The notes: generated from the sequence alone by a model not told the origin. Shown: positions 4,299-38,066, counted from the stretch's first letter. The stretch is DNA of 64,000 nucleotides from Muribaculaceae bacterium (GCA_022510425.1 JAFLTO010000003.1:133570-197569); one strand, 5' to 3'. A program made the numbers and translations.

Positions 4299-5840
4299 TT
4301 ATTTCAACTCTTCTACCGCTACATTAGGAGTATAATAGCCTTCCACAATATTTAGGAATTCAGCTTTCATAGACTCTAATTTTTCAGGTTCGGCCGCAGC
4401 TATATTATTGACTTGTCCCGGATCTTCTTTCACGTTGAACAGTCTGTAATCCAATTCGTTGCCCAATTCATTACCTGTCAAATTTGTCTTCGGACCCTTA
4501 TAGGGTGGTATCAATATGTAATCTCCTTGTCTCAGACCCATTTTTCCTTGTGCCTCGAATATGAGTTCAGATCTTCCTTCGTTGCTCTGACCTAAGAAAA
4601 CAGGCAGATAGTTGCGTGAATCCAATCCCTCAGGTATTTCTCCTCCCACGAGTTCTGCCAATGATGCGGCCAAGTCTATCTGACATACCAAGGCATCGCT
4701 AACTGCGGGCTCAATTTTCCCTTTCCAATATACGAATAAAGGCACTCTGGTTCCTCCGTCATAAAGGGAATATTTTCCACCTCTGAGGGGTCCTGCGGGT
4801 TTATGGTCGCCAAGCAGTTCTCTTGCATTGTCTTTATAGCCGTCGTCTAATACGGGACCATTGTCGCTGGAGAAGATTATCATTGTATTGTCTAAAAGAT
4901 TCAATGAGTCGAGATAATCCACAACTTCACCGACACACCAGTCGGCTTCTACGATCACGTCGCCTCTCGGCCCTAAATCCGTGGATCCAACAAATCTTGG
5001 ATGCGGAGCTCTTGGCACATGCGGTTGATGCAAACCATAATAGAGGAAAAATGGTTTGTCTTGATTTTCGTTGATGAAATCTTTAGCCTTATCAACAAAA
5101 TAATCAGCCATCTCTTCATCTACCCATTTAGCATCATTGCCACCTTTCATGAATCCTATTCGAGGTATTCCGTTAACGATTGAATTGTTGTGGCCGTGGC
5201 TCCATTCCATCTTGAGCATTTCAGGATTTGTCAATGCTGTGGGTTCCCCATCGAAATTATTATCGTAATCCACATAGATAGGATCGTTGGGATCTTGATT
5301 CACCACAACACCATTCTCTACAAAAACGGTTGGAACTCTGTCGTTGGTTGCTGCTATAATGCAAGAATAGTCGAATCCCACTTCTTTAGCTCCGGGACGT
5401 ATTGTATCGTTCCAGTCAGGATGACCTTCTCCCATTCCCAAGTGCCATTTGCCTATGGCTCCTGTGGTATAACCCGCCTGTTGCATCATCTGTGGCATTG
5501 TATAGTTATTAACATTTATGAGGAGGGGAGCGTCGCCGGGTAATATCTTTGCATCTTGGTTTTTCCAGGGATACATTCCCGTGAATAAAGCATATCTGCT
5601 GGGAGTGGAAGTAGCCGAAGTAGCATAGCCGTTTGTAAATCTTATACCATTGCATGCCAGCGAATCAAGTCTCGGTGTTGGAATAGCTTTGGCACCCGCA
5701 AATCCTACATCGCCGAATCCTAAGTCGTCGGCAAGTATCACTACTACATTAGGTTTGTCCGGATTGTTGTTTTTTGTTTCTGCCTGGCTTACGCCTCCTA
5801 TCGCTGTCAAGGCAGCCAAAGGCATGATAGTTTTTCTCAT
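4299..5840 (-). CDS. S1-family sulfatase, Ser-type (formylglycine position is Ser)
   Basis: PNVVVILADDLGFGD metal-binding N-terminus. The sulfatase signature reads S-T-P-S-R-YAL-FTG (plus-strand nt 5595-5609), so Ser replaces the usual Cys. I prefer the ATG at 5840 (MRKTIMPLAALTAIGG.., a typical signal peptide) over the tracked 5873. Confidence 0.88.
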   Translation of the reverse strand: MRKTIMPLAALTAIGGVSQAETKNNNPDKPNVVVILADDLGFGDVGFAGAKAIPTPRLDSLACNGIRFTNGYATSATSTPSRYALFTGMYPWKNQDAKILPGDAPLLINVNNYTMPQMMQQAGYTTGAIGKWHLGMGEGHPDWNDTIRPGAKEVGFDYSCIIAATNDRVPTVFVENGVVVNQDPNDPIYVDYDNNFDGEPTALTNPEMLKMEWSHGHNNSIVNGIPRIGFMKGGNDAKWVDEEMADYFVDKAKDFINENQDKPFFLYYGLHQPHVPRAPHPRFVGSTDLGPRGDVIVEADWCVGEVVDYLDSLNLLDNTMIIFSSDNGPVLDDGYKDNARELLGDHKPAGPLRGGKYSLYDGGTRVPLFVYWKGKIEPAVSDALVCQIDLAASLAELVGGEIPEGLDSRNYLPVFLGQSNEGRSELIFEAQGKMGLRQGDYILIPPYKGPKTNLTGNELGNELDYRLFNVKEDPGQVNNIAAAEPEKLESMKAEFLNIVEGYYTPNVAVEELK

Positions 5841-5962
5841 ATAAAATATTTTAAGGTTATTGATATCTTTCATGAATCCCTCAACCCTTCTCCTTTATTA
5901 CTTATCTTTCGCAAATTAATAAAAATTTTCCGAAAAATAAAAGATTATTCGTTGGAAATAAT

Positions 5963-5970
5963 TATTTTTG
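5963..5970 (+). promoter_or_regulatory. Candidate Bacteroides-type -7 box TATTTTTG
   Basis: Matches the TAnnTTTG consensus 29 nt upstream of the ATG at 5999. No clear -33 TTTG at the expected spacing. Confidence 0.4.
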
Positions 5971-5998
5971 TTGAGACTTCACTTAAAAATCTCACCCC

Positions 5999-8230
5999 AT
6001 GAAAATTCGTCTGTTTGTTGTTTCGGTTCTAACGATACTTTCTGCTTTCTGCATTGAAGTATATGCTCAAGTTTTGAACAGGGCTTTGGAATTCTCGGAT
6101 TCCGGATATGTGGATTGCGGTTATTTGCCGGAAATGGAAGGAAAGGATTCTTATTCCTTACAATTCTGGATGAAACCCTTCAAATGGATTTCAGGGGCTT
6201 CTATAATTTCATATGGAGATGATTTCTCTGTTAAATTGGCCGACCCTGATCAAATTATAATTCATTCCGGTAAAAAAAATTTAAAAGTCACTTCTTCTGA
6301 ACTGAAACCGAATGAATGGACCCAGGTAACGATTATTTGTAATCAGGGAGAAACTGAAGTATTAATAGATGGTTCTGAAGCCGCTAAAGGAAATCTATCT
6401 GCCATAACAACCAACGGTTCTCATCCGTCTTTTATAATAGGAGGAGGTTTTGATGGAATGATAGATGAGGTGCGGGTGTGGGATGATGCACTTAACGATG
6501 AGATGAAATCTTTCGATTATTTCACCCGCAACACATTAAACAAGCATAATCCGATGTGGTCAAATCTTGTGGCATACTACAAGATGGACCAACCCGATTG
6601 CCCCAATCTTGTGGAATACAAGATTATTGATTCTCCCGACGCTGAATATAATAATCACGGTATATTTTATGGTGATGTAAAAAGGGTAGAGGCTGACAAT
6701 CCTAAATTACCTTATCTTATAAATTCAGCTTATACTGAGAATCCACGTTTTTATTATTGTGTCACTCCCCAAGATCAATACCTTCTTCATAATGAATTGA
6801 TAATACTCGGCTCAGATGTATATGCCGAGGATGGTCGTATTGAAACCAAAACCCCCAATAATCATGCAATTAATTTTATAAATACCTCTTATATTCCCAA
6901 ATTCGAGGGGAGAAACGGTATTTTACAGCTTCATGGAGATAAAGATTCTTATTTTTCAATACCGGCTAAAACCGTTAAATCCGATAAGAACTTCACAATA
7001 GAGGCGTGGCTATATCTTGATGATATAAACACTGACGAAAGCAGTTTACCCACTAAAGAATGGTTCCATTTGGCAATATCATCGGATGAAGAAAACCAAT
7101 TAGGTGGTATCTCTTATTATATAAATGGAGTAAAGGTGGATGGAGAAAATCTAAATATTAATTTAGGAGCAAGTAGAGATTCTGAAAATCCGGATGAAAT
7201 TTTAATAGGTAAAGATTTCAAAGGGAAAATCGATGAATTGGTTATATGGAACGAAGGTTTCTCTCTAAAAGATATCAAAGATCATTATGAAAAAGGTATT
7301 CCGTCTCCCGGATATGGTTACCCTGTGAGCCGGGAAATTATGAATGCCGTAGGCGCTTATTATAAATTCGATGATGAAAACAATCAGGGTCACAGTTACC
7401 ATTCTCAGGATGAATGGCTTAATATCATGAAAAAGAATTATGAGGGCCGACAAGGTATAAAATACTTTATTTCCGTGCAAGGCACTTATAGAGTACGCGA
7501 TAAATACGGCGATTGGAGGGAAATCCTTGAATCATCAGAAAAACGGCACCGTTTCGCTAATGATTTAGCCGAAATATCTAAAAATTATGATGGTGCCGAA
7601 CTAGATTTGGAGTGGATAGAAACTCCGGAACTATGGGAACATTTCGGCCTTCTGGCACAAGCTATCCGTGAAGCAATGCCCGATGACAAACAATTCAGAA
7701 TCTCATTGCATAATAATTTCACCGCCTTTCCTCAAGATAAGATGAAATATGTGGATGGTTTCACATTCCAGCAATATGGTCCGCAAGCCTCCAATTTCAG
7801 TTATCAGAATTTCCTTGATAATGTCAAAAAATTTGAAGGTCTTTATGAACCCAAGAAGATAATGACTTCTTATTCCACTACCACTTCTCGAGGCTCCGAG
7901 GGTTCTCCGGTTAGATTAATAAAAGGAGAACCGCTCAACAATTATTCTCCTAATTATGAAGATCAGGATTCTTTTACTATAGGAGAGGAGACCTGGAAAT
8001 TTATGGGACCGATGCAAGTCTATCGTCGTGCCAAACAAACGCGGGAAGAAAATCTTCTTGGAATTTTCTATTGGGTGATCGGTGACGACAATTGGAACGA
8101 AGAAAACGGAGATTTGAAAATAGCCCCAAACAATCAAGCCAAATATAGCTCTTTCGGTATCAACGCCAACAACGACCCCTACATTCCCTCGGTTAAGGTA
8201 AATCACCCCAAAAACACTGAATCACGATAA
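5999..8230 (+). CDS. Secreted LamG(x2, second shortened)-GH18-like protein, paralog 1; no T9SS tail
   Basis: Signal peptide ..EVYA|QVLNRALEF. LamG/concanavalin-like hallmarks are present (SYSLQFWMKP.., MIDEVRVWDDAL; KGKIDELVIWNEGF). The C-terminal TIM-barrel-like region carries YDGAELDLEW (7589-7615), FTFQQYG and GIFYW, which resemble GH18 motifs. It is colinear with 11506-13986 and with the C-terminus of 14173-22452. Confidence 0.75.
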   Translation: MKIRLFVVSVLTILSAFCIEVYAQVLNRALEFSDSGYVDCGYLPEMEGKDSYSLQFWMKPFKWISGASIISYGDDFSVKLADPDQIIIHSGKKNLKVTSSELKPNEWTQVTIICNQGETEVLIDGSEAAKGNLSAITTNGSHPSFIIGGGFDGMIDEVRVWDDALNDEMKSFDYFTRNTLNKHNPMWSNLVAYYKMDQPDCPNLVEYKIIDSPDAEYNNHGIFYGDVKRVEADNPKLPYLINSAYTENPRFYYCVTPQDQYLLHNELIILGSDVYAEDGRIETKTPNNHAINFINTSYIPKFEGRNGILQLHGDKDSYFSIPAKTVKSDKNFTIEAWLYLDDINTDESSLPTKEWFHLAISSDEENQLGGISYYINGVKVDGENLNINLGASRDSENPDEILIGKDFKGKIDELVIWNEGFSLKDIKDHYEKGIPSPGYGYPVSREIMNAVGAYYKFDDENNQGHSYHSQDEWLNIMKKNYEGRQGIKYFISVQGTYRVRDKYGDWREILESSEKRHRFANDLAEISKNYDGAELDLEWIETPELWEHFGLLAQAIREAMPDDKQFRISLHNNFTAFPQDKMKYVDGFTFQQYGPQASNFSYQNFLDNVKKFEGLYEPKKIMTSYSTTTSRGSEGSPVRLIKGEPLNNYSPNYEDQDSFTIGEETWKFMGPMQVYRRAKQTREENLLGIFYWVIGDDNWNEENGDLKIAPNNQAKYSSFGINANNDPYIPSVKVNHPKNTESR

Positions 8231-8245
8231 ATAGTGATGCTTCCT

Positions 8246-8559: not shown

Positions 8560-9783
8560 ATGCTTATGAAAAAATCATTACTTTTAACTATGGCCCTTTT
8601 GGGTGGTATGTGCGCTTATGCACAAGCACCGACAGGTGGTACTGACGTTACACCTGCCGGCTACAAATTCGGAGAAGTCAAACAAATTCCTTGGTATGAT
8701 AATGGTTTTGGAGCTAACGGCTATGGGTTTACTTCAGCCGCCAATTTCACAACCAGTAGCCGTGCCGGAAAAGGTGTATGGACTGTCCTTGGTTCTTCTG
8801 CTCAGGAATATTGGGATGCCAACAACGGTCTTATGGGATGCGCATGGGTTGCAGACGAGGAAATGATGAATCAGATACTTGAAGGTTGTCAACTTGTTGA
8901 CCTCGGTGGAGAAGTAGGTCAAGTGTTCTGCTGGCAAGGTAGATATTCCAATCTGAAAGAACAACTACAGGAAAATTATCCTAATGAGAATTGGGATAAC
9001 ATTCCTGACCCGATCGACACAAACGTAAAACAAGGTTGGAACTTCAACGTTTGGTTGAATCCTAATCAAGTTTGGACAAAAGGTATGGGTTTCTATCGTT
9101 TCCGTATGGTCATGAACGCTCTTCATAATGTACCTGAAGATCTTATCGATGAAAGCGACAGCAGCACTTTGCCTTTCAGAGGTCAAGCTATCTTCAAGGA
9201 AATGTATCAGGTGAACAACCAAGGCAATAACACTTCTTTCATCTATACGGGAGAAGTTAACGAAGAGGGGGAAAAAGTTAATACATCCATACGTGACGGT
9301 TGGGACAATGGTTCTGTAATGACTCCTATCACCAACGATCTTTTCGTTAAGAGATTTGAAGACGGCGCCGTAATGGAAAATGATTATGGCGACCCGATGT
9401 GGGACCCCACAAAATGGATTGTTGTTGACTATTACTTCAATGTTGCCGGTAACGACAAGGGTGTTGATGAAAACGGTGATGCTACTACTCCGGTACGTAT
9501 TAAGTTCAATACCGATGTTTTTATGAACTATCACGCTGTGCTTATCAAGGAATTCTCTGTAACCCAGTTTGACGGTGAATTGACCCAGGATATCTATGAC
9601 CTCAACAAATTGTCATATCCGGAATTGACTCTGACACCGGGTGTTGCAGGCGTGCAAGGAATCATCGACGATTACAATGCTCCTGTTGAATACTATAACC
9701 TCCAAGGTATGAAGGTTGCTAATCCTGAAAAGGGTATCTTCATCAAGAAACAAGGAAAGAAATCAACTAAGGTCGTATTATAA
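8560..9783 (+). CDS. T9SS-sorted secreted protein carrying one copy of an unassigned module ('domain X', subtype b)
   Basis: Signal peptide ..CAYA|QAPTGG (the ATG at 8566, MKKSLLL, is equally possible). Domain X motifs: DVTPAGYKF, LVDLGGEVGQVF, WDPTKW (9400-9417), LIKEFSVTQ. The C-terminal tail PVEYYNLQGMKVANPEKGIFIKKQGKKSTKVVL looks like a type-A T9SS C-terminal domain. Confidence 0.75.
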   Translation: MLMKKSLLLTMALLGGMCAYAQAPTGGTDVTPAGYKFGEVKQIPWYDNGFGANGYGFTSAANFTTSSRAGKGVWTVLGSSAQEYWDANNGLMGCAWVADEEMMNQILEGCQLVDLGGEVGQVFCWQGRYSNLKEQLQENYPNENWDNIPDPIDTNVKQGWNFNVWLNPNQVWTKGMGFYRFRMVMNALHNVPEDLIDESDSSTLPFRGQAIFKEMYQVNNQGNNTSFIYTGEVNEEGEKVNTSIRDGWDNGSVMTPITNDLFVKRFEDGAVMENDYGDPMWDPTKWIVVDYYFNVAGNDKGVDENGDATTPVRIKFNTDVFMNYHAVLIKEFSVTQFDGELTQDIYDLNKLSYPELTLTPGVAGVQGIIDDYNAPVEYYNLQGMKVANPEKGIFIKKQGKKSTKVVL

Positions 9784-9794
9784 TGAAATAAATT

Positions 9795-9868: not shown

Positions 9869-11389
9869 ATGAAAAAAACTCTACTTACCCTTGCTGCTGT
9901 AGCTATCTCAGTAGGTGCGTGGGCACAAGACAACGCCGGCTTGATCGACGTAACTCCCAATTATTACAATTTTAACAAGATCAATTCTACTCAATTGACT
10001 TCAATCCTTCGTTCTGATGTTCGTCAACCGGTTCCTTTCAATCTTGGAGGTGATAACTGGATTACATCAAATACCAATGGCGGTGAAAATTATTTCACTT
10101 CAGAACAGATTGCTAATGGTAACATTCTTTTTGGTGCTTTTGTTTACAACCAGTCAAAAGAAGCTGAATTTGCTAAAGCTTTCTCTCTATTAGATTTAGG
10201 TGGCAACCTTGGCCAAGTATTAGTTCTTAATGGACAGAATTCAAACTTGAACGAAGCAGTTCAGGAGGCTTGTGGTCTTGATGCAGCTCCCGAAATTCCG
10301 GCTTACCAAGGTGCTTTCGGTGCTAATTTCCAATATAACCATATTTTGGATTTCGAATCAATGAATAAATATGTCTTGGAAGCTAACCCGGGTCTTACTG
10401 CTGCTGATCTTTTGGAACAGGCTGAAGATGCAAAAATCACTCCAATCCGTATCAGAATCAGAGTTGAAATGAACGCATATAATAATGACATGTCTAAAGA
10501 ACTAAGTATTGTAAATACCACATTCTTACAGAACGAAGCAGGTAATGCAATTGGTTTTGATGTTATGGATCCAGATAACTTCACTTATGTAGATGTGTCT
10601 CAGTTCTCGGAAAATGGTGTTTGGAATCCAAACCTTTGGCTCGTTCGTGAGTGGGATGTAGACTACACAGGTATCGCATCCTACATAAAATTCTTAGGCA
10701 CTAATACTGATTCAGATTTCGATAATGGTGCTCTCCTTGTTCGTAGTTTGAAAGTATTCGTACTTCCAGAAGGCGAAGAATCTTATCCTAATTACACTAA
10801 AGTAATAGACGGTGTAACTAAAGAATACAAATTTTCTACATTCCATGACACTTTAGTTGACTATTCAGAAGTAGCTGTTGAACCGGCTTATCCTGAAAAC
10901 CTCTATATGATGGGTAATATCGTTAATAATTCCTGGAATCCTTCTGCTGCAGTAGCTCCTGAATCTGCTGAAGACGGTGTGTTCACTTTCACAGATATCG
11001 AACTTTATAACACAGCAACTGATCCCGCTTTCTTTACTTTCATCAATACTCTTAGCGACAATTGGGATTTAATCAATGACGGTTCTCACCGTTATGGTCC
11101 TGCTGAAGGTCAAAATGGTGCTGTTAATGTAGGCCAGTCTGATATCAAGTTCGCTCTCGGTGGTGACACTTCTTTCAATATTGCAAATGGTACATACGAT
11201 TTTGTTGTAGATTTCAACACTATGACAATCGCAATTTCTGAAGCCGGTTCAGTTGGTGTTAAGACAGTTATCGATTTCAATGCTCCGGTTGAATACTACA
11301 ACCTCAATGGTGTGAAGGTTGCTAATCCTGACAAGGGTATCTACATTATCCGTCAGGGCAACACAACAAAGAAAGCTGTTATCCGTTAA
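9869..11389 (+). CDS. T9SS-sorted secreted protein: domain X (subtype a) + SusE/F-like or CBM-like beta-sandwich + T9SS tail
   Basis: Signal peptide ..GAWA|QDN. Domain X motifs: DVTPNYYNF, LLDLGGNLGQVLVLNG, WNPNLW (10622-10639), LLVRSLKVF. Region ~10897-11245 (NLYMMGNIVNNSWNP...GTYDFVVDFNTMTIAIS) resembles SusE/SusF-type glycan-binding domains. Tail: PVEYYNLNGVKVANPDKGIYIIRQGNTTKKAVIR. Confidence 0.75.
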   Translation: MKKTLLTLAAVAISVGAWAQDNAGLIDVTPNYYNFNKINSTQLTSILRSDVRQPVPFNLGGDNWITSNTNGGENYFTSEQIANGNILFGAFVYNQSKEAEFAKAFSLLDLGGNLGQVLVLNGQNSNLNEAVQEACGLDAAPEIPAYQGAFGANFQYNHILDFESMNKYVLEANPGLTAADLLEQAEDAKITPIRIRIRVEMNAYNNDMSKELSIVNTTFLQNEAGNAIGFDVMDPDNFTYVDVSQFSENGVWNPNLWLVREWDVDYTGIASYIKFLGTNTDSDFDNGALLVRSLKVFVLPEGEESYPNYTKVIDGVTKEYKFSTFHDTLVDYSEVAVEPAYPENLYMMGNIVNNSWNPSAAVAPESAEDGVFTFTDIELYNTATDPAFFTFINTLSDNWDLINDGSHRYGPAEGQNGAVNVGQSDIKFALGGDTSFNIANGTYDFVVDFNTMTIAISEAGSVGVKTVIDFNAPVEYYNLNGVKVANPDKGIYIIRQGNTTKKAVIR

Positions 11390-14171: not shown

Positions 14172-14172
14172 C

Positions 14173-28649: not shown

Positions 28650-30224
28650 ATGAATAATTCTAACCAAATTCTTATCCCTTCCTTGGCTTTGTTGTCAGTT
28701 GGTGTAGCAACGTCTTGTAAAGGTAAAGAAGAAAAAAAGGCTGAAAACGAGCCTCTAAATATAGTGTATATCATGACCGATGATCATACGGCACAGATGA
28801 TGAGCTGTTATGACACACGTTATGCAGAAACACCAAATCTTGATAGAATTGCCAATGACGGTGTAAAATTCGTTAACAGTTATGTGGCTAATTCTTTAAG
28901 CGGTCCGAGCCGTGCTTGTATGCTCACCGGTAAACACAGTCATAAAAACGGTTTCACAGACAACACAACCTGTGTGTTCGATGGAAGCCAACCCACTTTC
29001 CCTAAATATCTCCAGAAAGCGGGATATCAGACCGCTCTTTTCGGAAAATGGCACCTCGAATCTCTGCCGCAAGGTTTCGACCGTTGGGAAATTGTTCCAG
29101 GTCAAGGGGATTATTATAATCCGGACTTTATCGTGGAAACAGGTGATACTATCGTAAACCATGGGTATCTTACTAACCTTATCACAGACAAGAGTCTTAA
29201 TTGGCTCGAAAATGAGAGGGATAAAGATAAACCTTTCTGTCTGTTGATACATCATAAAGCAATTCACAGAAACTGGATGGCTGACACATGTCACCTCGCT
29301 CTATATGAGGATAAGGTTTATCCAATGCCTGAAAATTTCTATGATAATTATGAGGGGAGAGAGGCAGCCAAAACTGCGGAAATGAGAATTGCAGATCATA
29401 TGGATGTGCTTTATGACCTAAAAATGAACCGTCCGGATAAATACAGTGACCTTAAGGCACGGTATGAAAGTTATTATAACCGAATGGATTCTGCTCAGAA
29501 AGCCAAATGGGATGCTTTTTATAATCCGATCATAGAGGATTTCTATGCTCAAAATTTGGAAGGGAAAGAACTTGCCGAATGGAAGTTCCAAAGATATATC
29601 AAGGACTATCTAAAAACTGTCAAAAGTCTTGATGAAAATGTAGGAAGGGTTCTCGATTATCTGGAAGAACATGATCTTTTGAAAAACACTCTTGTGGTTT
29701 ACACTTCCGACCAAGGTTTCTATATGGGGGAACATGGATGGTTTGACAAACGCTTTATGTATGAAGAGTCGCTCAACACTCCGCTGATTATGCGCCTTCC
29801 CGACGGATTTGAACGCAGAGGTGAAATAACAGAAATGGTTCAGAATATAGACTATGCTCCCACATTCCTGGAATTAGCCGGTTTGGAAGTACCCGAGGAT
29901 ATTCAGGGTGAATCATTTCTGCCGTTGTTGAAGGGAGAAAAACCGGAAAACTGGAGAGATGCAATTTATTATCATTTCTATGAATATCCGGCTGAACATG
30001 CCGTGAAGAGACATTATGGTGTGAGAGACGACAGATATAAACTCATGCATTTCTATAATGATATAGATGCCTGGGAACTATATGATCTACAGGAAGATCC
30101 TCATGAAATGAATAATATATATGGGAAACCCGGAACTGAGGAAATCACATCAAGAATGATGAAGAAACTCAAGGAACAACAAGAAAAATATGATGACCCA
30201 ATCCGTTTCCAATATCCTATATAA
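28650..30224 (+). CDS. S1-family sulfatase lipoprotein, Ser-type (possibly GlcNAc-6-O-sulfatase-like)
   Basis: Lipobox VATS|CKGKEEKK. LNIVYIMTDDH metal-binding motif. The signature reads S-G-P-S-R-ACM-LTG (28899-28913), with Ser at the formylglycine position. The subfamily guess is weak. Confidence 0.88.
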   Translation: MNNSNQILIPSLALLSVGVATSCKGKEEKKAENEPLNIVYIMTDDHTAQMMSCYDTRYAETPNLDRIANDGVKFVNSYVANSLSGPSRACMLTGKHSHKNGFTDNTTCVFDGSQPTFPKYLQKAGYQTALFGKWHLESLPQGFDRWEIVPGQGDYYNPDFIVETGDTIVNHGYLTNLITDKSLNWLENERDKDKPFCLLIHHKAIHRNWMADTCHLALYEDKVYPMPENFYDNYEGREAAKTAEMRIADHMDVLYDLKMNRPDKYSDLKARYESYYNRMDSAQKAKWDAFYNPIIEDFYAQNLEGKELAEWKFQRYIKDYLKTVKSLDENVGRVLDYLEEHDLLKNTLVVYTSDQGFYMGEHGWFDKRFMYEESLNTPLIMRLPDGFERRGEITEMVQNIDYAPTFLELAGLEVPEDIQGESFLPLLKGEKPENWRDAIYYHFYEYPAEHAVKRHYGVRDDRYKLMHFYNDIDAWELYDLQEDPHEMNNIYGKPGTEEITSRMMKKLKEQQEKYDDPIRFQYPI

Positions 30225-30303: not shown

Positions 30304-32574
30304 ATGAAGAAAATAATCGCTGTAATATCTGTAATTGCCTTATATTGTGGAATTCTCCCTGCTGCAAAACAGCCTGTGATACCTCAACCGGCTCAGTACG
30401 AAATTTCTGATGGAGTGTTCAATGTGCCGAAACACTGGAATGTTAAATCTACACTCGATAATAAAACATCAGAGAAACTTCTCAAGGTACTTAAACATAA
30501 TTTTTCTTTGGAGAATGCAAAATCCAAAGAAGTAATAGATCTATATCTCAAGGAAGATAAAACAATAGCTCCGGAGGATTATATTCTTAAAGTAGAACCG
30601 TCGGCAGTCACTATTGAAGCCGGGACCGAAAAGGGATTCTATTATGGATTGCAGTCTCTTTATCAATTATGTTACCTGAACGGTGATGAGAATGCTATTC
30701 CTTGTTGCACTATCACAGATTCTCCCCGTTTTGCTTATCGTTCTTTGATGCTCGATCCGGTTAGATATTTCATTCCTAAGGAAGAGGTTCTTAAACTTAT
30801 CGACTTAGCTTCAGCTTTGAAATTTAACAACCTCCATCTCCATCTCACAGACGACAATGGCTGGAGAATGGAGATAAAGAAGTATCCGAAACTTACGGAA
30901 GTGGGTGCATGGAGAGTTGATCGGCCCGAAGTTTTCCCCGGAAGAGAAAATGCCAGGAGTGCAGATGAACCTACCCCTATAGGAGGATATTACACTCAAG
31001 ATGAATTGAAAGAAATAGTGAAATATGCAGCCGACAGGTATATAAATGTGGTGCCGGAAATTGAAATGCCGGCGCATGCTGCAGCAGCAATAGCATCTTA
31101 TCCTGAATTGGCATGCCCCATTGTGGATAAATTCGTTGGGGTTTTCCCCGGTATCGGGGGTGAGGATGCTTCTATAATTATGTGTGGAGGCAATGACAAA
31201 GTCTACGATTTTTATTGCGATGTGCTTGATGAGGTGATGGATGTGTTCCCTTCTAATTATATTCATTTGGGAGGAGACGAAGCCGACAAGAGCATTTGGA
31301 AAAATTGTCCTTTGTGCAATGAAAAAATAACAGTTGAAAATCTTGATGGCTACGAAGGCCTTCAAGCCTATTTCATGGATAGGATAAACAGTTATGTCCG
31401 TTCTAAAGGTCGTACAGCTATGGGCTGGGACGAAGTTACCTACGGTGATCCTAAAGAAGAAATGGTGATCCTGGGTTGGCAAGGTGACGGAGGGGTAGCG
31501 GTGAGAGACTCCAAGAAGAGCGGAAGAAAATTTATCCTCACACCGGCTAAACTTCTTTATCTGTTAAGATATCAGGGGCCCCAATGGTTTGAACCTTACA
31601 CTTATTTCGGCAACAACACGTTGCAAGATGTTTATGAATACGAACCGATTAAAGAAGATTGGACTCCTGAACTTAGAGACAATTTGTTAGGGGTACAAGG
31701 TTCTTTGTGGACAGAATTCTGTAAGAATCCGGGTGATGTGGAATATCTGCTCTTCCCACGCCTTATTGCCGTTTCGGATCTTTCTTGGAGACCTGAAGGG
31801 TCAGCTGATTGGCCCGAATTCCTCATAGCCCTCGATAATTATCTTCCGGAACTGGAAGAGAGGGGAATTATACATTCTAACTCTATGTATAATATACAAC
31901 ACACAGTTAAACCTTCCGGAAATGGGGTAGTGGTTGACCTTGAATGTATACGACCTGATGTGGATATAATTTATACACTCCGTGGCGAGGAAAAAAATCC
32001 AAAAAAATACACAGGACCTATTTCTTTAGGTAATTCTAATTCTTTAGTTGCAGCCACTTATAAGGATGGCAAACAAATGGGACAACCTTTGGCTCTAAAT
32101 ATGGAGTTTAATAAAGCCACAGGAAAAAAGGTAACCTCTTCAAATTGCAACAATACTCTCGAAGGAGTTCTCACAAACGGTGTGCGTGGTAGCCAAAAGA
32201 TTTCTGATTTCGAATGGGCCGGTTGGCATGACAGGGATGCGGAATTTGTAGTGGACCTTGGGGAAATTCAACCCATTAATAATTGTAAATTAGGTTCCTT
32301 GGTAGCTTCTCAAATTTGTGTTGCTCTCCCAAGCAGTGTGGAACTTTATGGGTCGGAAGATGGTGAATCATTCTATCCTCTTTCCACAGTGGACACTCCG
32401 GAAGAAATTATATATACAAAGCTTCCGACCAATCATGAAATAGATTTTGGAAATCTTGACACTAATGCGAGATATTTGAAGGTGATTGCTAAGAATCCGG
32501 GTAATATACCCTCAGGCTATGCACGGGGAGGAGCTAAATCCTGGCTCTATTTCGATGAACTCACCCTTGAATAA
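30304..32574 (+). CDS. GH20 beta-N-acetylhexosaminidase with a C-terminal F5/8-type-C (discoidin)-like domain
   Basis: NNLHLHLTDDNGWRMEIKKYP and the catalytic HLGGDE pair (D-E at 31276-31281). The C-terminal ~150 aa (..VTSSNCNN..FEWAGWHD..VVDLGE..VELYGSEDG..) looks discoidin-like. Confidence 0.9.
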   Translation: MKKIIAVISVIALYCGILPAAKQPVIPQPAQYEISDGVFNVPKHWNVKSTLDNKTSEKLLKVLKHNFSLENAKSKEVIDLYLKEDKTIAPEDYILKVEPSAVTIEAGTEKGFYYGLQSLYQLCYLNGDENAIPCCTITDSPRFAYRSLMLDPVRYFIPKEEVLKLIDLASALKFNNLHLHLTDDNGWRMEIKKYPKLTEVGAWRVDRPEVFPGRENARSADEPTPIGGYYTQDELKEIVKYAADRYINVVPEIEMPAHAAAAIASYPELACPIVDKFVGVFPGIGGEDASIIMCGGNDKVYDFYCDVLDEVMDVFPSNYIHLGGDEADKSIWKNCPLCNEKITVENLDGYEGLQAYFMDRINSYVRSKGRTAMGWDEVTYGDPKEEMVILGWQGDGGVAVRDSKKSGRKFILTPAKLLYLLRYQGPQWFEPYTYFGNNTLQDVYEYEPIKEDWTPELRDNLLGVQGSLWTEFCKNPGDVEYLLFPRLIAVSDLSWRPEGSADWPEFLIALDNYLPELEERGIIHSNSMYNIQHTVKPSGNGVVVDLECIRPDVDIIYTLRGEEKNPKKYTGPISLGNSNSLVAATYKDGKQMGQPLALNMEFNKATGKKVTSSNCNNTLEGVLTNGVRGSQKISDFEWAGWHDRDAEFVVDLGEIQPINNCKLGSLVASQICVALPSSVELYGSEDGESFYPLSTVDTPEEIIYTKLPTNHEIDFGNLDTNARYLKVIAKNPGNIPSGYARGGAKSWLYFDELTLE

Positions 32575-32576: not shown

Positions 32577-32618
32577 TTGAAAGATAAAATTAAAATTGAA
32601 AGATAATAGGAAAGATAA
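32577..32618 (+). repeat. Three direct copies of GAAAGATAA (TTGAAAGATAA x2, GGAAAGATAA x1) filling the GH20-GH2 spacer
   Basis: Copies at 32577-32587, 32596-32606 and 32609-32618. The last A of the third copy is the A of the GH2 ATG (32618). Confidence 0.8.
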
Positions 32619-35032
32619 TGATAAATAAAACAAGTAAGATATTATTGTTGGGACTTGCTTCCGTATTTTCCATAGGAGGTTTATTTGCTAAGTCTACTGC
32701 TCGGCAGAGTTTGAACGAAGGATGGGTATTCGAAAAGGATGGCAAAAGCCGTGTACTCAACCTTCCTCATGATTGGGGTGTGGAATATCCTTTCGAACAG
32801 ATTTATCCGGGAGAAACAGGCAAGCTTCCTTGGTGGGGAAAGGCTAAATATAGCAAAGTCCTGACAGTGGATGCGACTGAACAAGCCGATAGCCTAAGAT
32901 TTTTATTGGATGTTGACGGGGCTATGTCGGGTGCAAAAGTTTATGTAAATGATGATTTCGTGATGGAATGGCCTTATGGATATGCTTCTTTCCGTGCAGA
33001 CTTAACTCCTTATCTAAATGTTGGTGATAACAACTTGGTTATCACCCTTGACAATCCCGAAAATTCTTCACGTTGGTATCCCGGTGGTGGTATCTACAGA
33101 AACGTTTGGCTTACTAAAGAACTACCGGTTTCTGTTGGTCAGTGGGGTACATATATAACAAGCGATTATAAAGGTAATGGTGATGCTGAGGTAAACTTGG
33201 AAATAACTCTCGACAATAAGTCAAAGCCTTATGCCGGTGAAGTTATTACTGAAATTTTTGATAATGGAAAGATAATTGATAAGGCCACAACAGCAGAGTA
33301 TATTCAAGACGGCACTATTATAAACCAAAAGTTTAACTTGAAGAATGTTGAACTATGGAGCCCGGAAAGTCCAAAGATGTATTTGGCTAAAACTACAGTT
33401 GTGAATCCTGATGGTAAAGTTTCCGTGTATGAAACTCCCTTCGGAATCCGAACAATTGAATTCAAGCCTGATGGTTTCTATCTAAATGGAGAGAAAAATT
33501 TTCTTAAGGGAGTTTGTCTTCATCATGATGCCGGTGCTTTAGGTGCAGTCTGGAATAACGATGCTTGGGTGAGAAGACTCAACCTTCTGAAAGAAATGGG
33601 TTGCAACGCTATTAGAACTTCCCATAATCCTCCGGCACCTGAATTCTTAGAACTTTGTGACAGTCTTGGGTTCATGGTGGAAGATGAATTCACCGACAGT
33701 TGGACTTTGCCCTTGAATAAGAAACCTAACGGGTATGTGAGCCTTTTTGAAGATTGGTCTGAAAAAGATGTAAAGGCAATGATTATAAGAGACCGAAATC
33801 ATCCTTCCGTTGTGCTTTGGAGTATCGGAAATGAATGTGAGGAACAATTGGATCCGACCACTTGGTGGGTACCATTACAACTTTATGATATAACTAAACA
33901 AACCGACCCAACTCGTCCGGTTACATCCGGGAACAATAAGCTTCCGGCATATAAGACAGCCTATCACTTGGTTAACGATGTGTATGGCTTCAATTACAAA
34001 CCTTTCGCTTATGAAGATTTCCACAAAAGATATCCTAATCAGCCTGTAATAGGAGCAGAGACAGCATCGTGCGTTTCAACTCGCGGATATTACAAGTTCC
34101 CTGTTGAGGAAGACAAAGGTAAAGGATGGGTAGATGGAGCTCCCTATCAAGTGAGTTCTTATGATCTGTATGCTCCGGGTTGGGCATCCAAACCGGATTA
34201 TGAATGGGAATTCGAAGACAAGGCTCCATATCTTTGCGGAGAATTCGTTTGGACAGGTATCGATTATCTTGGAGAACCCACTCCATATAATGTAGACTGG
34301 TCAATTCTTACCAATTTTACAAGTCCGGAAGAGAAAGCTAAAGCGGAAGAAGCCCTCAGGCAACAGGCTCAGACTCCTCCTCCCGCACGCAGTTCATATT
34401 TTGGTATAATTGACTTAGCCGGTTTCCCAAAAGACAGATACTACCTTTATCAATCTCGTTGGAATCCCGAGAAACCCATGGCACATATTCTTCCTCATTG
34501 GAACTGGGAAGGGAGAGAAGGCGACATTACACCCATTCATGTTTACACTTCCGGCGACAGTGCTGAATTATTTGTAAATGGTGAATCCAAAGGTCTAAAG
34601 AAAAAGGGAGAATATGAATATCGTCTTCGTTGGGACGATGTTGTTTACGAACCGGGAATAGTAGAAGTAGTAGCATATAAGGATGGTAAAGAGTGGGCTC
34701 GAGATAAGGTAGAAACCACTGGAAAAGCCGAAAAACTTGTGCTAAGCAAAGATTATGAAGGTAAAGACCTTACATATGTCAGAGTAGAAGTGGCTGACAA
34801 ACAAGGCCAAATGGTTCCTACAGCCAATAACGACCTTAAATTCAGTATTTCAGGTCCCGGTAAGATTGTAGCGTGTGACGGTGGTGATCCTACCAGCCAT
34901 ATACCTTTTTATTCTACCGAATTACCGGCCTTCAATGGACTTTCTTCTGTTATCGTGGAACGAACCGGTCCAGGTAAAATAACTCTCAAAGCAACTTCTA
35001 AAGGACTCAAATCAGGCGAAATTAAGATTTAA
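32618..35032 (+). CDS. GH2 beta-galactosidase-type glycoside hydrolase
   Basis: NHPSVVLWSIGNE (acid/base Glu codon at 33833-35) and GEFVWTGIDYLGE (nucleophile region); 804 aa with signal peptide. Confidence 0.88.
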   Translation: MINKTSKILLLGLASVFSIGGLFAKSTARQSLNEGWVFEKDGKSRVLNLPHDWGVEYPFEQIYPGETGKLPWWGKAKYSKVLTVDATEQADSLRFLLDVDGAMSGAKVYVNDDFVMEWPYGYASFRADLTPYLNVGDNNLVITLDNPENSSRWYPGGGIYRNVWLTKELPVSVGQWGTYITSDYKGNGDAEVNLEITLDNKSKPYAGEVITEIFDNGKIIDKATTAEYIQDGTIINQKFNLKNVELWSPESPKMYLAKTTVVNPDGKVSVYETPFGIRTIEFKPDGFYLNGEKNFLKGVCLHHDAGALGAVWNNDAWVRRLNLLKEMGCNAIRTSHNPPAPEFLELCDSLGFMVEDEFTDSWTLPLNKKPNGYVSLFEDWSEKDVKAMIIRDRNHPSVVLWSIGNECEEQLDPTTWWVPLQLYDITKQTDPTRPVTSGNNKLPAYKTAYHLVNDVYGFNYKPFAYEDFHKRYPNQPVIGAETASCVSTRGYYKFPVEEDKGKGWVDGAPYQVSSYDLYAPGWASKPDYEWEFEDKAPYLCGEFVWTGIDYLGEPTPYNVDWSILTNFTSPEEKAKAEEALRQQAQTPPPARSSYFGIIDLAGFPKDRYYLYQSRWNPEKPMAHILPHWNWEGREGDITPIHVYTSGDSAELFVNGESKGLKKKGEYEYRLRWDDVVYEPGIVEVVAYKDGKEWARDKVETTGKAEKLVLSKDYEGKDLTYVRVEVADKQGQMVPTANNDLKFSISGPGKIVACDGGDPTSHIPFYSTELPAFNGLSSVIVERTGPGKITLKATSKGLKSGEIKI

Positions 35033-35034: not shown

Positions 35035-36006
35035 ATGATGAACAGCAAACCATATTCTATAGGTATTGATATAGGCGGAACAAACACTGTTTTCGGTATT
35101 GTTGACCGCAACGGAAAAGTAATTGCTAAAAACTCAATCAAGACAAAGGGCTATCCCGACTTTAAGAGTTACCTTGATGTGCTCCATGAGGCCTTGACGA
35201 AACTAATCAAAGAACATGATGCAGAAGGTAAGATTGTGGGTATAGGCATTGGAGCCCCCGGTGCCAATTATCATACCGGTGAAATAGTAAACGCGGCGAA
35301 TCTTAATTGGGGAGAAAACCTTCCAATAGCTTGGCTGGTGAGTGAAAAATTCGGAGGTCTGCCAGTCACTGTCACCAATGATGCCAATGCAGCTACTATG
35401 GGAGAGATGGTCTATGGTGCCGCAAAAGGAATGAAAGATTTCATGATGATCACCTTAGGGACAGGTTTAGGTTCCGGTGTTGTTTCGAATGGAAAACTTG
35501 TTTACGGACATGATGGACTTGCCGGAGAATTAGGTCATGTGGTGGTAGATAAGAAAGGGAGAAGTTGCGGATGTGGCAGAAAGGGATGCCTGGAAACCTA
35601 TTGCAGCAGCACGGGAATGGTTCGTACAGCTAAGGAATTGCTTGAAAGCAGTAATGAGCCAAGTGTCTTAAGAAATATCGACCCTGAAAAAATCACTTCG
35701 AAAGATGTTTATGATGCAGCAGTGAAGGGCGATAAATTAGCTAATGAAATTTTTGAGTTTACCGGTAAGATGTTGGGAGAAGCCTTAGCCGATTTCACCG
35801 CATTCTCAAGTCCGGAGGCCTTCATTCTTTTCGGAGGCCTTATGAAGAGCGGGGATCTGTTGTTGAATCCTACAAAGAAGGCTTTTGAAAATCATTTACT
35901 CTTCATCTACCATGATAAACCAAAAATTTTGGTATCCCAATTAAATGAAGACGACGGAGCTGTGTTAGGGGCTTCTGCACTGGCTTGGGAATCGGAAAAT
36001 AATTAA
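35035..36006 (+). CDS. ROK-family sugar kinase (glucokinase / N-acetylglucosamine kinase type)
   Basis: GIDIGGTNTVFGIV ATP-binding motif, the ROK zinc motif GHVVVD..CGCGRKGCLETY, and a 2-nt gap after the GH2 stop. Confidence 0.88.
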   Translation: MMNSKPYSIGIDIGGTNTVFGIVDRNGKVIAKNSIKTKGYPDFKSYLDVLHEALTKLIKEHDAEGKIVGIGIGAPGANYHTGEIVNAANLNWGENLPIAWLVSEKFGGLPVTVTNDANAATMGEMVYGAAKGMKDFMMITLGTGLGSGVVSNGKLVYGHDGLAGELGHVVVDKKGRSCGCGRKGCLETYCSSTGMVRTAKELLESSNEPSVLRNIDPEKITSKDVYDAAVKGDKLANEIFEFTGKMLGEALADFTAFSSPEAFILFGGLMKSGDLLLNPTKKAFENHLLFIYHDKPKILVSQLNEDDGAVLGASALAWESENN

Positions 36007-36023
36007 ACCCGAAATAATTTAGC

Positions 36024-37217
36024 ATGATTCAACTTCCTTTCGGGAATCCCTTTGCTGTGATGGCAAAGCCGGTGGGTTCTGCCTGCAATCTCAGATGTAA
36101 GTATTGCTATTATCTGGAAAAAGGGAAATTCTATAAAACGGGTGACTCACATTTGATGAATGATGAGTCACTCGAAAATTTTATTTCTCAATACATAAGC
36201 AGTCAGCCAACTCAGACTGTTGTTTTCAATTGGCACGGAGGTGAGGCTTTGATAAGGCCTCTTTCATTCTATAAAAAGGTGATAGAATTGGAATCAAAAT
36301 ATGCCAATGGTCGAGAAATTAGCAATACAATACAGACAAACGGCACCTTATTGAGCGATGAATGGTGTGAATTTTTCAAAGAAAATAATTGGCTTGTAGG
36401 TGTGTCAATAGATGGGCCTCAGCACTTGCATGATATTTATAGGAAGCGTCATGACGGCTCTTCGTCTTTCCCGGATTTGATAGAGGGCATAGATCTTCTC
36501 AACAAACATAGAGTAGACTGGAATGTGTTGGCAACAGTTAATGCGGCTAATGCTGATTATCCGGAGCAAACCTACCGTTATCTTAAGGAATTGGGCACTC
36601 CTTTTATTCAATTCACCCCTGTGGTGGAAAGAATTAAGAGAGATGGAATGTTGGCTAATCAAAGTGAAGAAAACATCAAACTTGCGGATTTTTCTGTCAA
36701 ACCATTACAATGGGGAAATTTTATGTGTAGAGTTTTCGATGAATGGGTAAAAACCGATGTAGGAACAATCTATGTGCAACTATTCGATGCCACGTTAGCC
36801 AATAAAATGGGAGAGCAGTCGCCCGTATGTACTATGGCATCCGAATGTGGTTCCGCATTGGCTGTAGAATTCAACGGTGACGTATATTCATGCGATCATT
36901 TTGTATTCCCGCGATATAAACTTGGGAATATTTATAATAAACCTCTGTGGCAAATGGCTATGAGTGAACCTCAGAGAAGGTTCGGAAGCAATAAGAAAGA
37001 TTCCCTGCCAAAAAAATGTCGGGAATGTGAATACCTATGGGCTTGCCATGGAGAATGTCCCCGAAACCGTTTTGTGAAAACCAATGAGAAGGGAAGATAT
37101 CTGAATTACTTATGCGAAGGCTATAAGATGTTTTTCCGACATGTTTCTCCGGCTATGGAATTCATGAAACGTGAACTCGAAGCCGGTCGTCCCCCGGCCA
37201 ACATTATGAATAAATAG
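36024..37217 (+). CDS. Anaerobic sulfatase-maturating enzyme (radical SAM, SPASM domain)
   Basis: CNLRCKYCYY (CX3CX2C, 36084-36107), the C-terminal Cys clusters CTMASECG..YSCDHF..CRECEYLWACHGECPRNR, ~400 aa, and its position inside a sulfatase locus. Confidence 0.88.
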   Translation: MIQLPFGNPFAVMAKPVGSACNLRCKYCYYLEKGKFYKTGDSHLMNDESLENFISQYISSQPTQTVVFNWHGGEALIRPLSFYKKVIELESKYANGREISNTIQTNGTLLSDEWCEFFKENNWLVGVSIDGPQHLHDIYRKRHDGSSSFPDLIEGIDLLNKHRVDWNVLATVNAANADYPEQTYRYLKELGTPFIQFTPVVERIKRDGMLANQSEENIKLADFSVKPLQWGNFMCRVFDEWVKTDVGTIYVQLFDATLANKMGEQSPVCTMASECGSALAVEFNGDVYSCDHFVFPRYKLGNIYNKPLWQMAMSEPQRRFGSNKKDSLPKKCRECEYLWACHGECPRNRFVKTNEKGRYLNYLCEGYKMFFRHVSPAMEFMKRELEAGRPPANIMNK

Positions 37218-37253
37218 GAAGGAGGACTTTTGAGTCCTCCCTTAATTCAATTA

Positions 37254-38066
37254 TCACAATAACAATGACTTTGCGTCTAAGTTAGTTGCCTCAATATCTT
37301 TATAATATCTATAAGTTCCCATCTTAAGGTCTTCGCAGGCTGGGTCATCGCATACAATTATTGCCTTTGGATGCATTTGAAGGGCTGAAATTGTCCATTG
37401 ATGGGTAACTCCACCTTCCACCCCATGTTGCAACGCACGGCTCTTATTGAAACCGTTAACAATAAGCATCACACTCTTGGCATCCATGATTGTGCCGACA
37501 CCTACAGTCAGTGCATATCTTGGCACTTTGTTTACATCATTACCGAAGAAACGGGAGTTTGCAAACATGGTTTCCTTAGTAAGAGTCTTCATTCTTGTGC
37601 GTGATGTAAGTGATGAGCCCGGTTCATTGAAAGCAATATGTCCGTCGGTACCTACGCCACCAACAAACAAATCTATTCCTCCCACACTTTTGATCTTATC
37701 TTCATATCTCTGACATTCAGCTTCAGGGTCAGGGGCATTGCCATCCAAAATATTTACATTCTCCTCAGGAATGTCAATATGATTGAAGAAGTTTGTCCAC
37801 ATGAAAGTGTGATAACTTTGTTCATGGTTTTTAGGGATTCCACAATATTCGTCCATATTGAAGGTAATCACATTTTTGAACGATACTTTCCCTTCTTTAT
37901 TCAGTTTGATAAGGTTACGATACATACCAAGGGGAGAGCTTCCGGTGGGTAATCCTAAAACGAACGGTTTTTCCGGTGTTGCGTTTGCCTTGTTTATTCG
38001 TGCAGCTACATAATTAGCCGCCCATTCCGATACACTTTCATAATCAGGCTCAATGATAAGACGCAT
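37254..38066 (-). CDS. nagB: Glucosamine-6-phosphate deaminase
   Basis: ATG at 38066 gives [12 protein letters not shown].. (270 aa). Canonical motifs [14 protein letters not shown] and [16 protein letters not shown] are present. The tracked start at 38108 adds 14 unlikely residues. Confidence 0.93.

Follow-up and report, generated by a model that had tools for sequence, protein, structure and literature searches.

What does a gut bacterium of the Muribaculaceae take up with the help of large secreted proteins whose genes are joined to a Sus-type operon, and how do these proteins reach their site of action? The question is raised by a stretch of 64,000 nucleotides from the metagenome-assembled genome of a Muribaculaceae bacterium (GCA_022510425.1, JAFLTO010000003.1:133570-197569, locus tags J1F67_; hereafter the window), in which positions 4299-40177 hold two sulfatase genes, five genes for secreted proteins, a SusC/SusD pair, further glycoside hydrolases (GH) and genes of N-acetylglucosamine (GlcNAc) catabolism (Table 1). 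In the mouse gut, Muribaculaceae dominate among the bacteria associated with mucus, and they live in other animals too; their attack on sulfated colonic mucin is little understood. We propose that 4299-40177 is likely to be a polysaccharide utilisation locus (PUL) for 6-O-sulfated poly-N-acetyllactosamine (poly-LacNAc), that is, for the keratan-sulfate-like stretches of colonic mucin O-glycans and for keratan sulfate. What is new, judged by sequence comparison, is the type IX secretion system (T9SS)-style architecture predicted for a widespread clade of putative GH18 endo-O-glycanases, together with a domain, here called X, and a short C-terminal tag.

The region has the make-up of a PUL, with adjoining susC and susD genes and with GH20, GH2 and sulfatase genes directly downstream; the window on either side of the locus holds housekeeping genes. 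The gene content, order and coordinates given by an earlier, sequence-only reading were reproduced by our map of open reading frames (ORFs) and by Pfam and NCBIfam scans, two domain labels excepted: the five same-strand genes at 5999-22452 each code for a Sec-type signal peptide, SusC has no STN domain according to Pfam, and no sialidase, fucosidase or mannosidase was found among window ORFs of at least 100 aa, the set to which the search for regulators described below also refers. Both sulfatases are indeed of the Ser type, with S-x-P-x-R at the formylglycine (FGly) site, and the gene of an anaerobic sulfatase-maturating enzyme (anSME) is linked to them.

The sulfatases give the first indication of the substrate. 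The enzyme encoded at 4299-5873 aligns without gaps to PDB entry 7OZC (68% identity over 494 aa) and conserves the whole Asp/Arg/His triad by which 7OZC recognises galactose (Gal); its next-best PDB matches are likewise S1_15 entries. Because the triad of the 7OZC chain (D171, R172, H221) corresponds in position to the residues D170, R171 and H220 reported for BT1624 of Bacteroides thetaiotaomicron, we take 7OZC to be BT1624, an S1_15 sulfatase for 6-O-sulfated galactose or N-acetylgalactosamine (6S-Gal/GalNAc). For the second sulfatase, the match to 7P24 reaches 882 bits and that to 5G2V, an N-acetylglucosamine-6-sulfatase, 603 bits. By their similarity to characterised members, the two fall with subfamilies S1_15 and S1_11 (6S-GlcNAc), and the pair is thereby predicted to cover both sulfations that occur in keratan sulfate and in sulfated LacNAc of mucin.

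The same substrate is suggested by homology of the locus to an experimentally characterised system, and both lines agree with the sulfated LacNAc, keratan-sulfate-like or sulfated mucin glycan that the sequence-only reading had named. The B. thetaiotaomicron PUL bt1623-36 is induced on keratan sulfate and on colonic mucin O-glycans, and its enzymes degrade both (PMC13042051, a bioRxiv preprint of March 2026; an earlier source for bt1623-1636 is Luis et al., bioRxiv 10.1101/2021.07.23.453482). In that system, BT1632 is a cell-surface endo-β-N-acetylglucosaminidase active on keratan sulfate, sulfated poly-LacNAc and sulfated O-glycans, which cuts GlcNAc-β1,3-Gal such that the new non-reducing end carries Gal and the reducing end 6S-GlcNAc; the GH2 enzyme BT1626, next in order after the GH20 enzyme as in the window, acts as a β1,4-galactosidase, the GH20 enzyme BT1627 as a β1,3-GlcNAc-ase, BT1624 removes 6S-Gal and BT1628 removes 6S-GlcNAc (PMC13042051). 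We recovered the B. thetaiotaomicron locus from gut metagenome contigs by means of the BT1632 reverse primer in the supplement of PMC13042051; the ends of the recovered BT1632 ORF fit the primers exactly, and its product is a 554-aa lipoprotein with one LamG and one GH18 domain. The S1_11 sulfatase of the window is 70% identical to BT1628, its GH20 enzyme 49% to BT1627 over the portion read, SusC 33% to BT1631, SusD 27% to BT1630, and the GH18-like protein encoded at 11506-13986 is 26% identical to BT1632 over 525 aa (BLASTP, E 8e-37), in an alignment that spans both LamG and GH18 (BT1632 residues 57-528 against residues 235-739 of the window protein).

The locus encodes three such LamG-LamG-GH18-like modules, one of them at aa 1910-2672 of a giant protein. 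In the two smaller paralogues, Glyco_hydro_18 (PF00704) scores above its gathering cut-off of 29.6 bits (Table 1). An AlphaFold2 model of the domain in 11506-13986 (pLDDT 85.9) points, together with the Pfam match, to a GH18-type (β/α)8 barrel: 50 of the 50 Foldseek matches listed from the PDB have the GH18 fold, most of them chitinases (probability 1.00, TM 0.46-0.61, 12-18% identity). The active-site motif reads DGAELDLEW in 5999-8230 and DGVEFDLEW in the giant protein, and Y-D-G-x-E-x-D-x-E-W is invariant across an alignment of 52 homologues, with the catalytic Asp-x-Glu pair retained. These features suggest a divergent GH18 clade that is probably active. A PDB search with a single GH18-like sequence was uninformative, and a profile search with the family returned only chitinase-type GH18s and no endo-β-N-acetylglucosaminidase (ENGase) of the N-glycan type, ChiB-like 6XYZ matching only at E 2e-7.

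The sequence-only reading had regarded these proteins as endo-acting and had considered that they might release N-linked chains at the chitobiose core; release through the core is the less likely reading. GH18 does include endo-β-N-acetylglucosaminidases that cut the chitobiose core, and N-glycan PULs of Bacteroides use surface GH18s, so that enzymes of the EndoF/EndoBT type could free complex N-glycans that bear sulfate (N-linked keratan sulfate I) and are then imported; GH20 and GH2 enzymes also act on the antennae of complex N-glycans. We consider this very unlikely, as the locus lacks mannosidases of the GH92/GH38/GH130 type, sialidases and fucosidases, the profile search found no ENGase, and the sole characterised homologue found, BT1632, clusters apart from N-glycan ENGases and cuts inside poly-LacNAc (PMC13042051). 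By analogy with BT1632, the LacNAc backbone is the more likely target of the GH18-like proteins than the N-glycan core.

From gene identities and homologies, we infer the substrate, the linkage cleaved, the localisation of the proteins and their dependence on T9SS, and we propose the following hypothetical multistep pathway, in which (i) the five Sec-exported proteins would handle the polymer outside the cell, where the giant enzyme and the two stand-alone X-domain proteins would capture the glycan; (ii) the three LamG-LamG-GH18-like modules would act, like BT1632, as retaining, substrate-assisted endo-β-N-acetylglucosaminidases that cut GlcNAc(6S)-β1,3-Gal within the chain to give sulfated LacNAc di- and tetrasaccharides, the four tailed proteins filling the role of Bacteroides surface lipoproteins and the tail-less paralogue 5999-8230 perhaps working in the periplasm; (iii) the fragments would be imported through SusC/SusD with the small conserved lipoprotein; (iv) in the periplasm, the S1_15 (6S-Gal) and S1_11 (6S-GlcNAc) sulfatases, both activated by the linked anSME, would desulfate them; (v) the GH2 β1,4-galactosidase and the GH20 β-GlcNAc-ase would act in alternation to yield monosaccharides; and (vi) GlcNAc would be led into glycolysis by the ROK kinase, the NagB-like/PIG-L protein and NagB. 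Regulation of the pathway would be encoded away from the locus in this clade.

Is the link between the secreted proteins and the Sus operon more than an accident of this genome? A scan of one genome per species yielded 78 loci of the GH18-like clade, whose ORFs we classified with the window proteins as queries; they come from Muribaculaceae, from Prevotellaceae/Prevotella/Alloprevotella, from metagenome-assembled genomes (MAGs) labelled 'Bacteroidaceae' or 'Bacteroidales', and from Paludibacter. The GH18-like gene is followed at once by a gene for the small lipoprotein in 61 of the 78, and in 53 the run continues through susC and susD. An S1_11 sulfatase, usually together with GH20, is present in the available stretch of 34 loci, an X-domain gene lies directly upstream in 26, and a sialidase occurs in 10; Pfam-annotated contigs of six homologues give a matching picture. 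Since this adjacency recurs across loci, the link is an old, conserved unit and no chance juxtaposition. The least probable of the explanations weighed here is accordingly that the five upstream genes form an independent secreted cluster beside the Sus operon, either a ChiA-like system for chitin or chitooligosaccharides or a set of adhesins. It could account for the combination of GH18, GH20 and GlcNAc catabolism, which fits chitin as well, and for the signals between the genes: terminator-like hairpins stand directly after three of the five (8245-8274 after 8230, 9795-9826 after 9783 and, strongest, 22467-22494 after 22452), the last beginning 15 nt past the giant gene and thus before the lipoprotein/SusC operon, and the Bacteroidetes -7 motif is matched exactly ahead of 5999 and of 8560, though nowhere in the 239-nt gap before the lipoprotein gene. 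It does not account for the run from the GH18-like gene to susD that is kept in 53 of 78 loci and in several families, for the gap of only 20-45 nt that often separates GH18-like and lipoprotein genes in simpler relatives, for the like adjacency in the co-induced B. thetaiotaomicron PUL, or for the sulfatases, the anSME and the β-galactosidase, which have no role in chitin use. Because of the hairpins and the -7 motif matches, the front-end genes may nevertheless be transcribed separately from the lipoprotein-to-anSME operon. A sigma-70 scan gave 68 sites against 52 expected, a consensus that is not meaningful for Bacteroidota.

The window belongs to a small clade (loci L001, L003/L009, L004, L005 and L010) with an expanded front end, in which two X-domain proteins accompany three GH18-like paralogues, of which one has no tail; the giant fusion paralogue measures 2,145 to 2,759 aa in the three close relatives. 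Small genes of the mobile or defence type lie in or beside the front-end cluster of two of these loci, namely an AbiEii-family toxin gene with a partner ORF (L004, 5048-6488) and a gene for a PDDEXK_2 protein (L003, 3197-4174), which fits a recent rearrangement of the region. The lack of a linked regulator noted in the sequence-only reading was borne out: the window contains no hybrid two-component system (HTCS), no ECF sigma/anti-sigma pair and no SusR, its sole transcription factor is a MerR protein (57826-58188), and no regulator was found in public contigs that extend the window by 8 kb upstream and 7 kb downstream (~80 kb in total). A linked sensor or regulator is usual in PULs, though not obligatory. 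An HTCS homologue accompanies 15 of the 61 loci with the GH18-like/lipoprotein core (in L006, for example, at 3099-6995), and in the small clade to which the window belongs its absence is derived.

How the secreted proteins reach their site of action is suggested by their ends. All five front-end proteins have N-termini of the form MKK...hydrophobic...A-x-A/Q without a lipobox Cys, as read by eye, and ~80 GH18-like orthologues from T9SS-type Bacteroidales likewise start with Sec-type signals and not with lipoboxes. About half of the orthologues match, from end to end, a profile of the C-terminal domain (CTD) of T9SS cargo, built from Pfam-flagged tails, and most others end in a CTD-like manner; orthologues at 56-80% identity carry PF18962/TIGR04183 tails. 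Those from other Muribaculaceae MAGs include bona fide type-A CTDs, which speaks indirectly for T9SS machinery in the genome of the window. For the window itself, the claim that four of the five proteins carry T9SS-type tails holds in so far as conserved tails are present, and fails in that none of them reaches the cut-off of a T9SS model. The tail of the giant protein (from about nt 22255) scores 19.2 bits on TIGR04183, whose cut-off is 23, and the other three proteins end in a short tag for which neither PF18962 nor TIGR04183 gives a match at a limit as lenient as E<=10; the 80%-identical orthologue P0003 served as a positive control, and its tail scores 41.4 bits on the T9SS model. The fifth protein, 5999-8230, has a Sec signal and no tail, as have its orthologues in L003 and L004, which suggests a conserved division of labour between a periplasmic or freely released enzyme and surface-attached ones.

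The tag comprises ~44 residues (positions in Table 1) with the consensus GVxxIxxDxNAPVEYYNLQGVKVANPExGIFIKKQGxKxxKVxx, and the copy in 9869-11389 scores 73 bits. With ORF 8560-9783 as the query, we found about 55 proteins, most of which begin with a signal peptide, that have no more than the last ~44 residues in common, at 60-87% identity; the mean column identity across unrelated proteins is 65%. A tag profile run against 1.84 billion representative proteins matched 12,175 at E<=1e-3 and 4,150 at E<=1e-10; all 150 matches listed end within 2 residues of the last residue of the protein, and none of 10 tag-bearing clusters carries a name. Among GH18-like orthologues, the short tag and the canonical CTD alternate at one and the same position: the tag stands in place of the CTD in the window protein and in a 79%-identical orthologue, the two kinds of tail co-occur within single loci, other loci have weaker tag variants with longer loops, and Prevotellaceae orthologues end in short tails of the 'YDLQGRR...GIYI.NGKK' type. 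Taken together, these results make the tag a real and very widespread C-terminal signal. A tie to T9SS is plausible, and T9SS, or a related route that reads C-terminal signals, probably exports or anchors the four tailed proteins.

A rival account keeps the substrate and the pathway and assigns the tag to a function outside T9SS, such as another mode of export or retention, vesicle loading or surface docking, so that canonical CTDs alone would use T9SS; we regard it as unlikely, though with a real chance of being right. A full Ig-like CTD fold needs more than ~35 conserved residues, which is the length that the tag conserves. Added to this are the missing PF18962 and TIGR04183 matches, the lack of precomputed PF18962 annotation on tag-bearing proteins, and an hhalign comparison of the tag with canonical CTDs that was not significant (probability 2.6%, P 0.018), on which account we do not call the tag a CTD homologue. 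In most related loci, moreover, the X-domain protein bears the short tag and the neighbouring GH18-like protein a canonical CTD, which suggests two classes of signal. That orthologues swap one tail for the other at the same position is hard to reconcile with this account; likewise, the expected CTD strands are the ones brought together in the weak hhalign alignment ('VEYYNLQG' against 'V-IYSLSG', 'GIFI' against 'GIYLV'), the weaker tag variants with longer loops come nearer to canonical-tail spacing by eye, and the tag is always extreme C-terminal, on carriers whose N-termini, where read, are mostly Sec-signal starts. The ChiA secretion signal of Flavobacterium johnsoniae reportedly escapes type-A and type-B CTD models as well. 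Hardly anything is openly published on T9SS in Muribaculaceae; beyond one preprint that predicts a T9SS cargo, literature searches on this subject and on the tag motif gave no useful result.

The claim that T9SS-sorted proteins take the place of surface lipoprotein enzymes is supported by the comparison, in that BT1632 is a lipoprotein and its orthologues here combine Sec signals with tails that are mostly canonical type-A CTDs. The idea that this architecture is unusual had to be given up: among Muribaculaceae and Prevotellaceae, it is the form that PULs of this type usually take. To our knowledge, B. thetaiotaomicron has no T9SS.

The second novel element, the ~300-aa X domain, occurs six times in the window (phmmer domain map), including four copies in the giant protein at roughly aa 1-279, 670-860, 993-1248 and 1385-1677; the giant protein also matches Big_5 and Laminin_G_3 in Pfam, and residues 1-301 and 23-325 of 9869-11389 match two of its regions at E 7e-40 and 2e-43. 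X had no sequence match in Pfam, NCBIfam or the PDB, and an AlphaFold2 model of the copy in 8560-9783 (pLDDT 84.9) gave nothing better than E 1e-3 or TM 0.2 in a Foldseek search of the PDB; the weak matches beyond these values (E>1e-3, TM ~0.2) were lectin-like jelly rolls, namely botulinum neurotoxin Hc, legume lectins and the carbohydrate-binding modules (CBM) CBM22/28. Because the fold matches are only weak, we assign X to no family and, by sequence comparison, regard it as a new domain. We predict that it binds glycan, a role that would fit both its fusion to the enzyme via Ig-like spacers and the tagged stand-alone protein encoded just upstream of the enzyme in 26 loci.

Several points weigh against the proposed reading of 4299-40177 as a PUL for sulfated poly-LacNAc with surface-displayed endo-enzymes, among them the sub-threshold tail of the giant protein and the lack of significant matches for the tag. 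The GH18-like motif is D-x-x-E-x-D-x-E, with the middle Asp of the canonical D-x-x-D-x-D-x-E replaced by Glu; in BT1632 the motif is canonical (DGADLDFEW). A pairwise comparison gives no more than 26% identity to BT1632, and BT3050, a relative of BT1632 at 23% identity, already differs from it in specificity (PMC13042051). B. thetaiotaomicron can grow on keratan sulfate without its four known endo-enzymes (PMC13042051), and since these are dispensable there, the endo-GH18s may not be the key step. To deal with capped mucin chains, the bacterium would have to draw on genes outside the locus, which encodes neither a sialidase nor a fucosidase, and the hairpin between the giant gene and the Sus operon makes co-transcription across this junction unlikely.

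If the reading holds, it ties Muribaculaceae to the keratan-sulfate/O-glycan pathway recently worked out in B. thetaiotaomicron, and many Bacteroidales outside Bacteroides would run this pathway with an endo-enzyme and binding proteins that reach the surface as Sec-exported, CTD-tailed proteins instead of lipoproteins. It also yields candidates: for a widespread GH18 endo-O-glycanase clade in 78 species genomes, for a new glycan-binding domain, and for a C-terminal tag that goes unrecognised by annotation pipelines and is borne by a minimum of 4,150 to 12,175 protein clusters. A more far-reaching version, which we find quite possible without favouring it, combines three steps, in that the tag would be a new conserved class of C-terminal signal, X a new CBM family for sulfated LacNAc glycans, and the whole a T9SS-displayed apparatus for capture and cleavage that acts before SusC/SusD. 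The tag class, either a T9SS 'mini-CTD' or a separate signal for surface display, would then be a feature of Muribaculaceae, Prevotellaceae and relatives, marking secreted proteins by the thousand that escape the T9SS models now in use. Should the tag prove to direct secretion, the secretomes predicted for these families would have to be revised.

The small lipoprotein between the GH18-like gene and susC constitutes an undescribed family. It had been labelled a BACON protein, a label that we rejected, as no BACON model (PF13004/PF19190) matched the window protein or 30 orthologues at E<=1, and Pfam scans and a PDB profile search gave nothing relevant and no other match; by eye, its C-terminal half is BACON-like all the same. 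In the window protein, the lipobox ...VSC is followed by the acidic DNEPKNPGD, and the family (the window protein and 64 orthologues) shares an invariant Cys, an acidic stretch and 'NPGD(F/Y)', so that its N-terminus resembles the export signal of Bacteroidota surface lipoproteins.

Among the remaining genes, the GH2 enzyme has named β-galactosidases among its best PDB relatives, the ROK kinase scores 246.6 bits on NCBIfam TIGR00744 (cut-off 260), and NagB probably starts at 38066, its TIGR00502 alignment beginning at residue 15. For the divergent sulfatase gene, public assemblies call the start at 5825. The NagB-like/PIG-L fusion gene at 38195-40177, missing from the gene list of the sequence-only reading, probably belongs to GlcNAc catabolism too. 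In locus L008 (GCA_965300025.1, 20022-22553), GH20 and GH2 are fused into a 1,757-aa product encoded directly after the S1_11 sulfatase. Four contigs are filed under bins named Oscillospiraceae (L017), Gemmiger formicilis (L031), Lachnospiraceae (L061) and Alistipes timonensis (L041); the first three are probably mis-binned, because they bear Firmicutes labels on a typical Bacteroidales PUL, the Alistipes label looks doubtful, and the organism labels of all four MAGs are not to be trusted for claims on distribution. A second, unrelated PUL begins at 61322, runs to 64000 and continues beyond the window (L122, 1-9602), with SusC, SusD, a CBM26 protein, a GH13 α-amylase and GH97; it is a starch-type locus, and the 10 kb of it that were read contain no SusR-like regulator.

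Table 1. Features of the locus in window coordinates, with the evidence for each assignment.
Feature	Position	Strand	Evidence and remarks
Ser-type sulfatase, S1_15-like	4299..5873	-	Pfam Sulfatase 189 bits; FGly motif STPSR; predicted 6S-Gal/GalNAc sulfatase
LamG-LamG-GH18-like paralogue 1, no C-terminal tail	5999..8230	+	Laminin_G_3 106 bits; Glyco_hydro_18 34.6 bits
X-domain secreted protein	8560..9783	+	short tag (9649-9780)
Second X-domain protein	9869..11389	+	C-terminal β-rich region; short tag (11255-11386)
LamG-LamG-GH18-like candidate endo-enzyme	11506..13986	+	Glyco_hydro_18 47.9 bits; short tag (13852-13983)
Giant secreted protein, 2,759 aa	14173..22452	+	four X domains, Ig-like spacers, LamG-LamG-GH18-like module, degenerate type-A CTD-like tail
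X domain copies	8560-9640; 9869-10780; in giant gene 14173-15009, ~16180-16750, 17149-17916, 18325-19203	+	
Terminator-like hairpin	22467..22494	+	12-bp stem with 8 GC pairs, T-rich tail; consensus match only
Small lipoprotein	22692..23258	+	signal ending ...VSC|DNE
SusC-type TonB-dependent transporter	23279..26524	+	TIGR04056 850 bits; SusC signature; CarbopepD_reg, Plug and barrel
SusD-type glycan-binding lipoprotein	26546..28525	+	SusD_RagB 131 bits; SusD-like_3 74 bits
Ser-type sulfatase, S1_11-like	28650..30224	+	FGly motif SGPSR; predicted 6S-GlcNAc sulfatase
GH20 β-N-acetylhexosaminidase with F5/8-type-C domain	30304..32574	+	Glyco_hydro_20 341 bits; PDB relatives
GH2 β-galactosidase	32618..35032	+	GH2 domains; NCBIfam GalB 897.5 bits (cut-off 900)
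ROK-family sugar kinase, no DNA-binding domain	35035..36006	+	ROK 238 bits, residues 9-317 of 323
anSME, radical SAM/SPASM	36024..37217	+	NF010308 614.7 bits (cut-off 484); TIGR03942 478 bits (cut-off 349)
NagB, glucosamine-6-phosphate deaminase	37254..38108	-	TIGR00502 410.7 bits (cut-off 237)
NagB-like/PIG-L (deacetylase-like) fusion	38195..40177	+	NF002557 890.7 bits (cut-off 384); PIG-L and Glucosamine_iso domains

Compared with known systems, the predicted endo-cleavage of keratan sulfate to sulfated LacNAc oligosaccharides is the same reaction as that of keratanase II from Bacillus circulans (CAZy GH111), an enzyme of an unrelated family and fold. The tag is like the type-A CTD of T9SS cargo (TIGR04183/PF18962) in its extreme C-terminal position on Sec-exported proteins and in its β-rich end, which is rich in Lys and carries the motifs G-(I/V)-(Y/F)-(I/V) and K-V-x-x; it differs in having ~35 conserved residues against ~75, in lacking the N-terminal 'PNP' strand and the middle strand, and in being much more conserved in sequence than is usual for CTDs. 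The ChiA locus of F. johnsoniae (PMC5127042; Kharade and McBride 2014) is a PUL whose key endo-acting GH18, large and multi-domain, is exported through T9SS and not as a lipoprotein, as is predicted for the window; it serves chitin and has no sulfatases, anSME or GH2, and ChiA itself, from an aerobic soil Flavobacterium, contains a pair of GH18 domains of the chitinase type and leaves the cell as a soluble protein. 'Candidatus Paraporphyromonas polyenzymogenes' (PMC5831590), also one of the gut/rumen Bacteroidales, encodes large carbohydrate-active enzymes with T9SS CTDs beside PULs; these are cellulases and hemicellulases for plant fibre with canonical CTDs, and they form no conserved enzyme/SusC/SusD unit for host glycans. 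In bt1623-36 of B. thetaiotaomicron, BT1632 is a lipoprotein with one LamG domain, whereas the window has three paralogues with Sec signals and two LamG domains each, two of them with C-terminal tails. BT1629 (593 aa, encoded after susD) has no homologue in the window, and as a counterpart of the X-domain proteins or of the small lipoprotein it was rejected, since only the signal peptides match; conversely, the ~190-aa lipoprotein before SusC and the X-domain proteins set the window family apart. The window lacks counterparts of the HTCS (BT1635), the GH29 fucosidase and the S1_20 sulfatases of B. thetaiotaomicron, and it adds genes for anSME, ROK kinase and NagB. Common to both are an S1_15 homologue, Ser-type sulfatases that need an anSME, and the order GH18, SusC, SusD, S1_11 sulfatase and GH20, which in B. 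thetaiotaomicron is interrupted after SusD by a surface protein.

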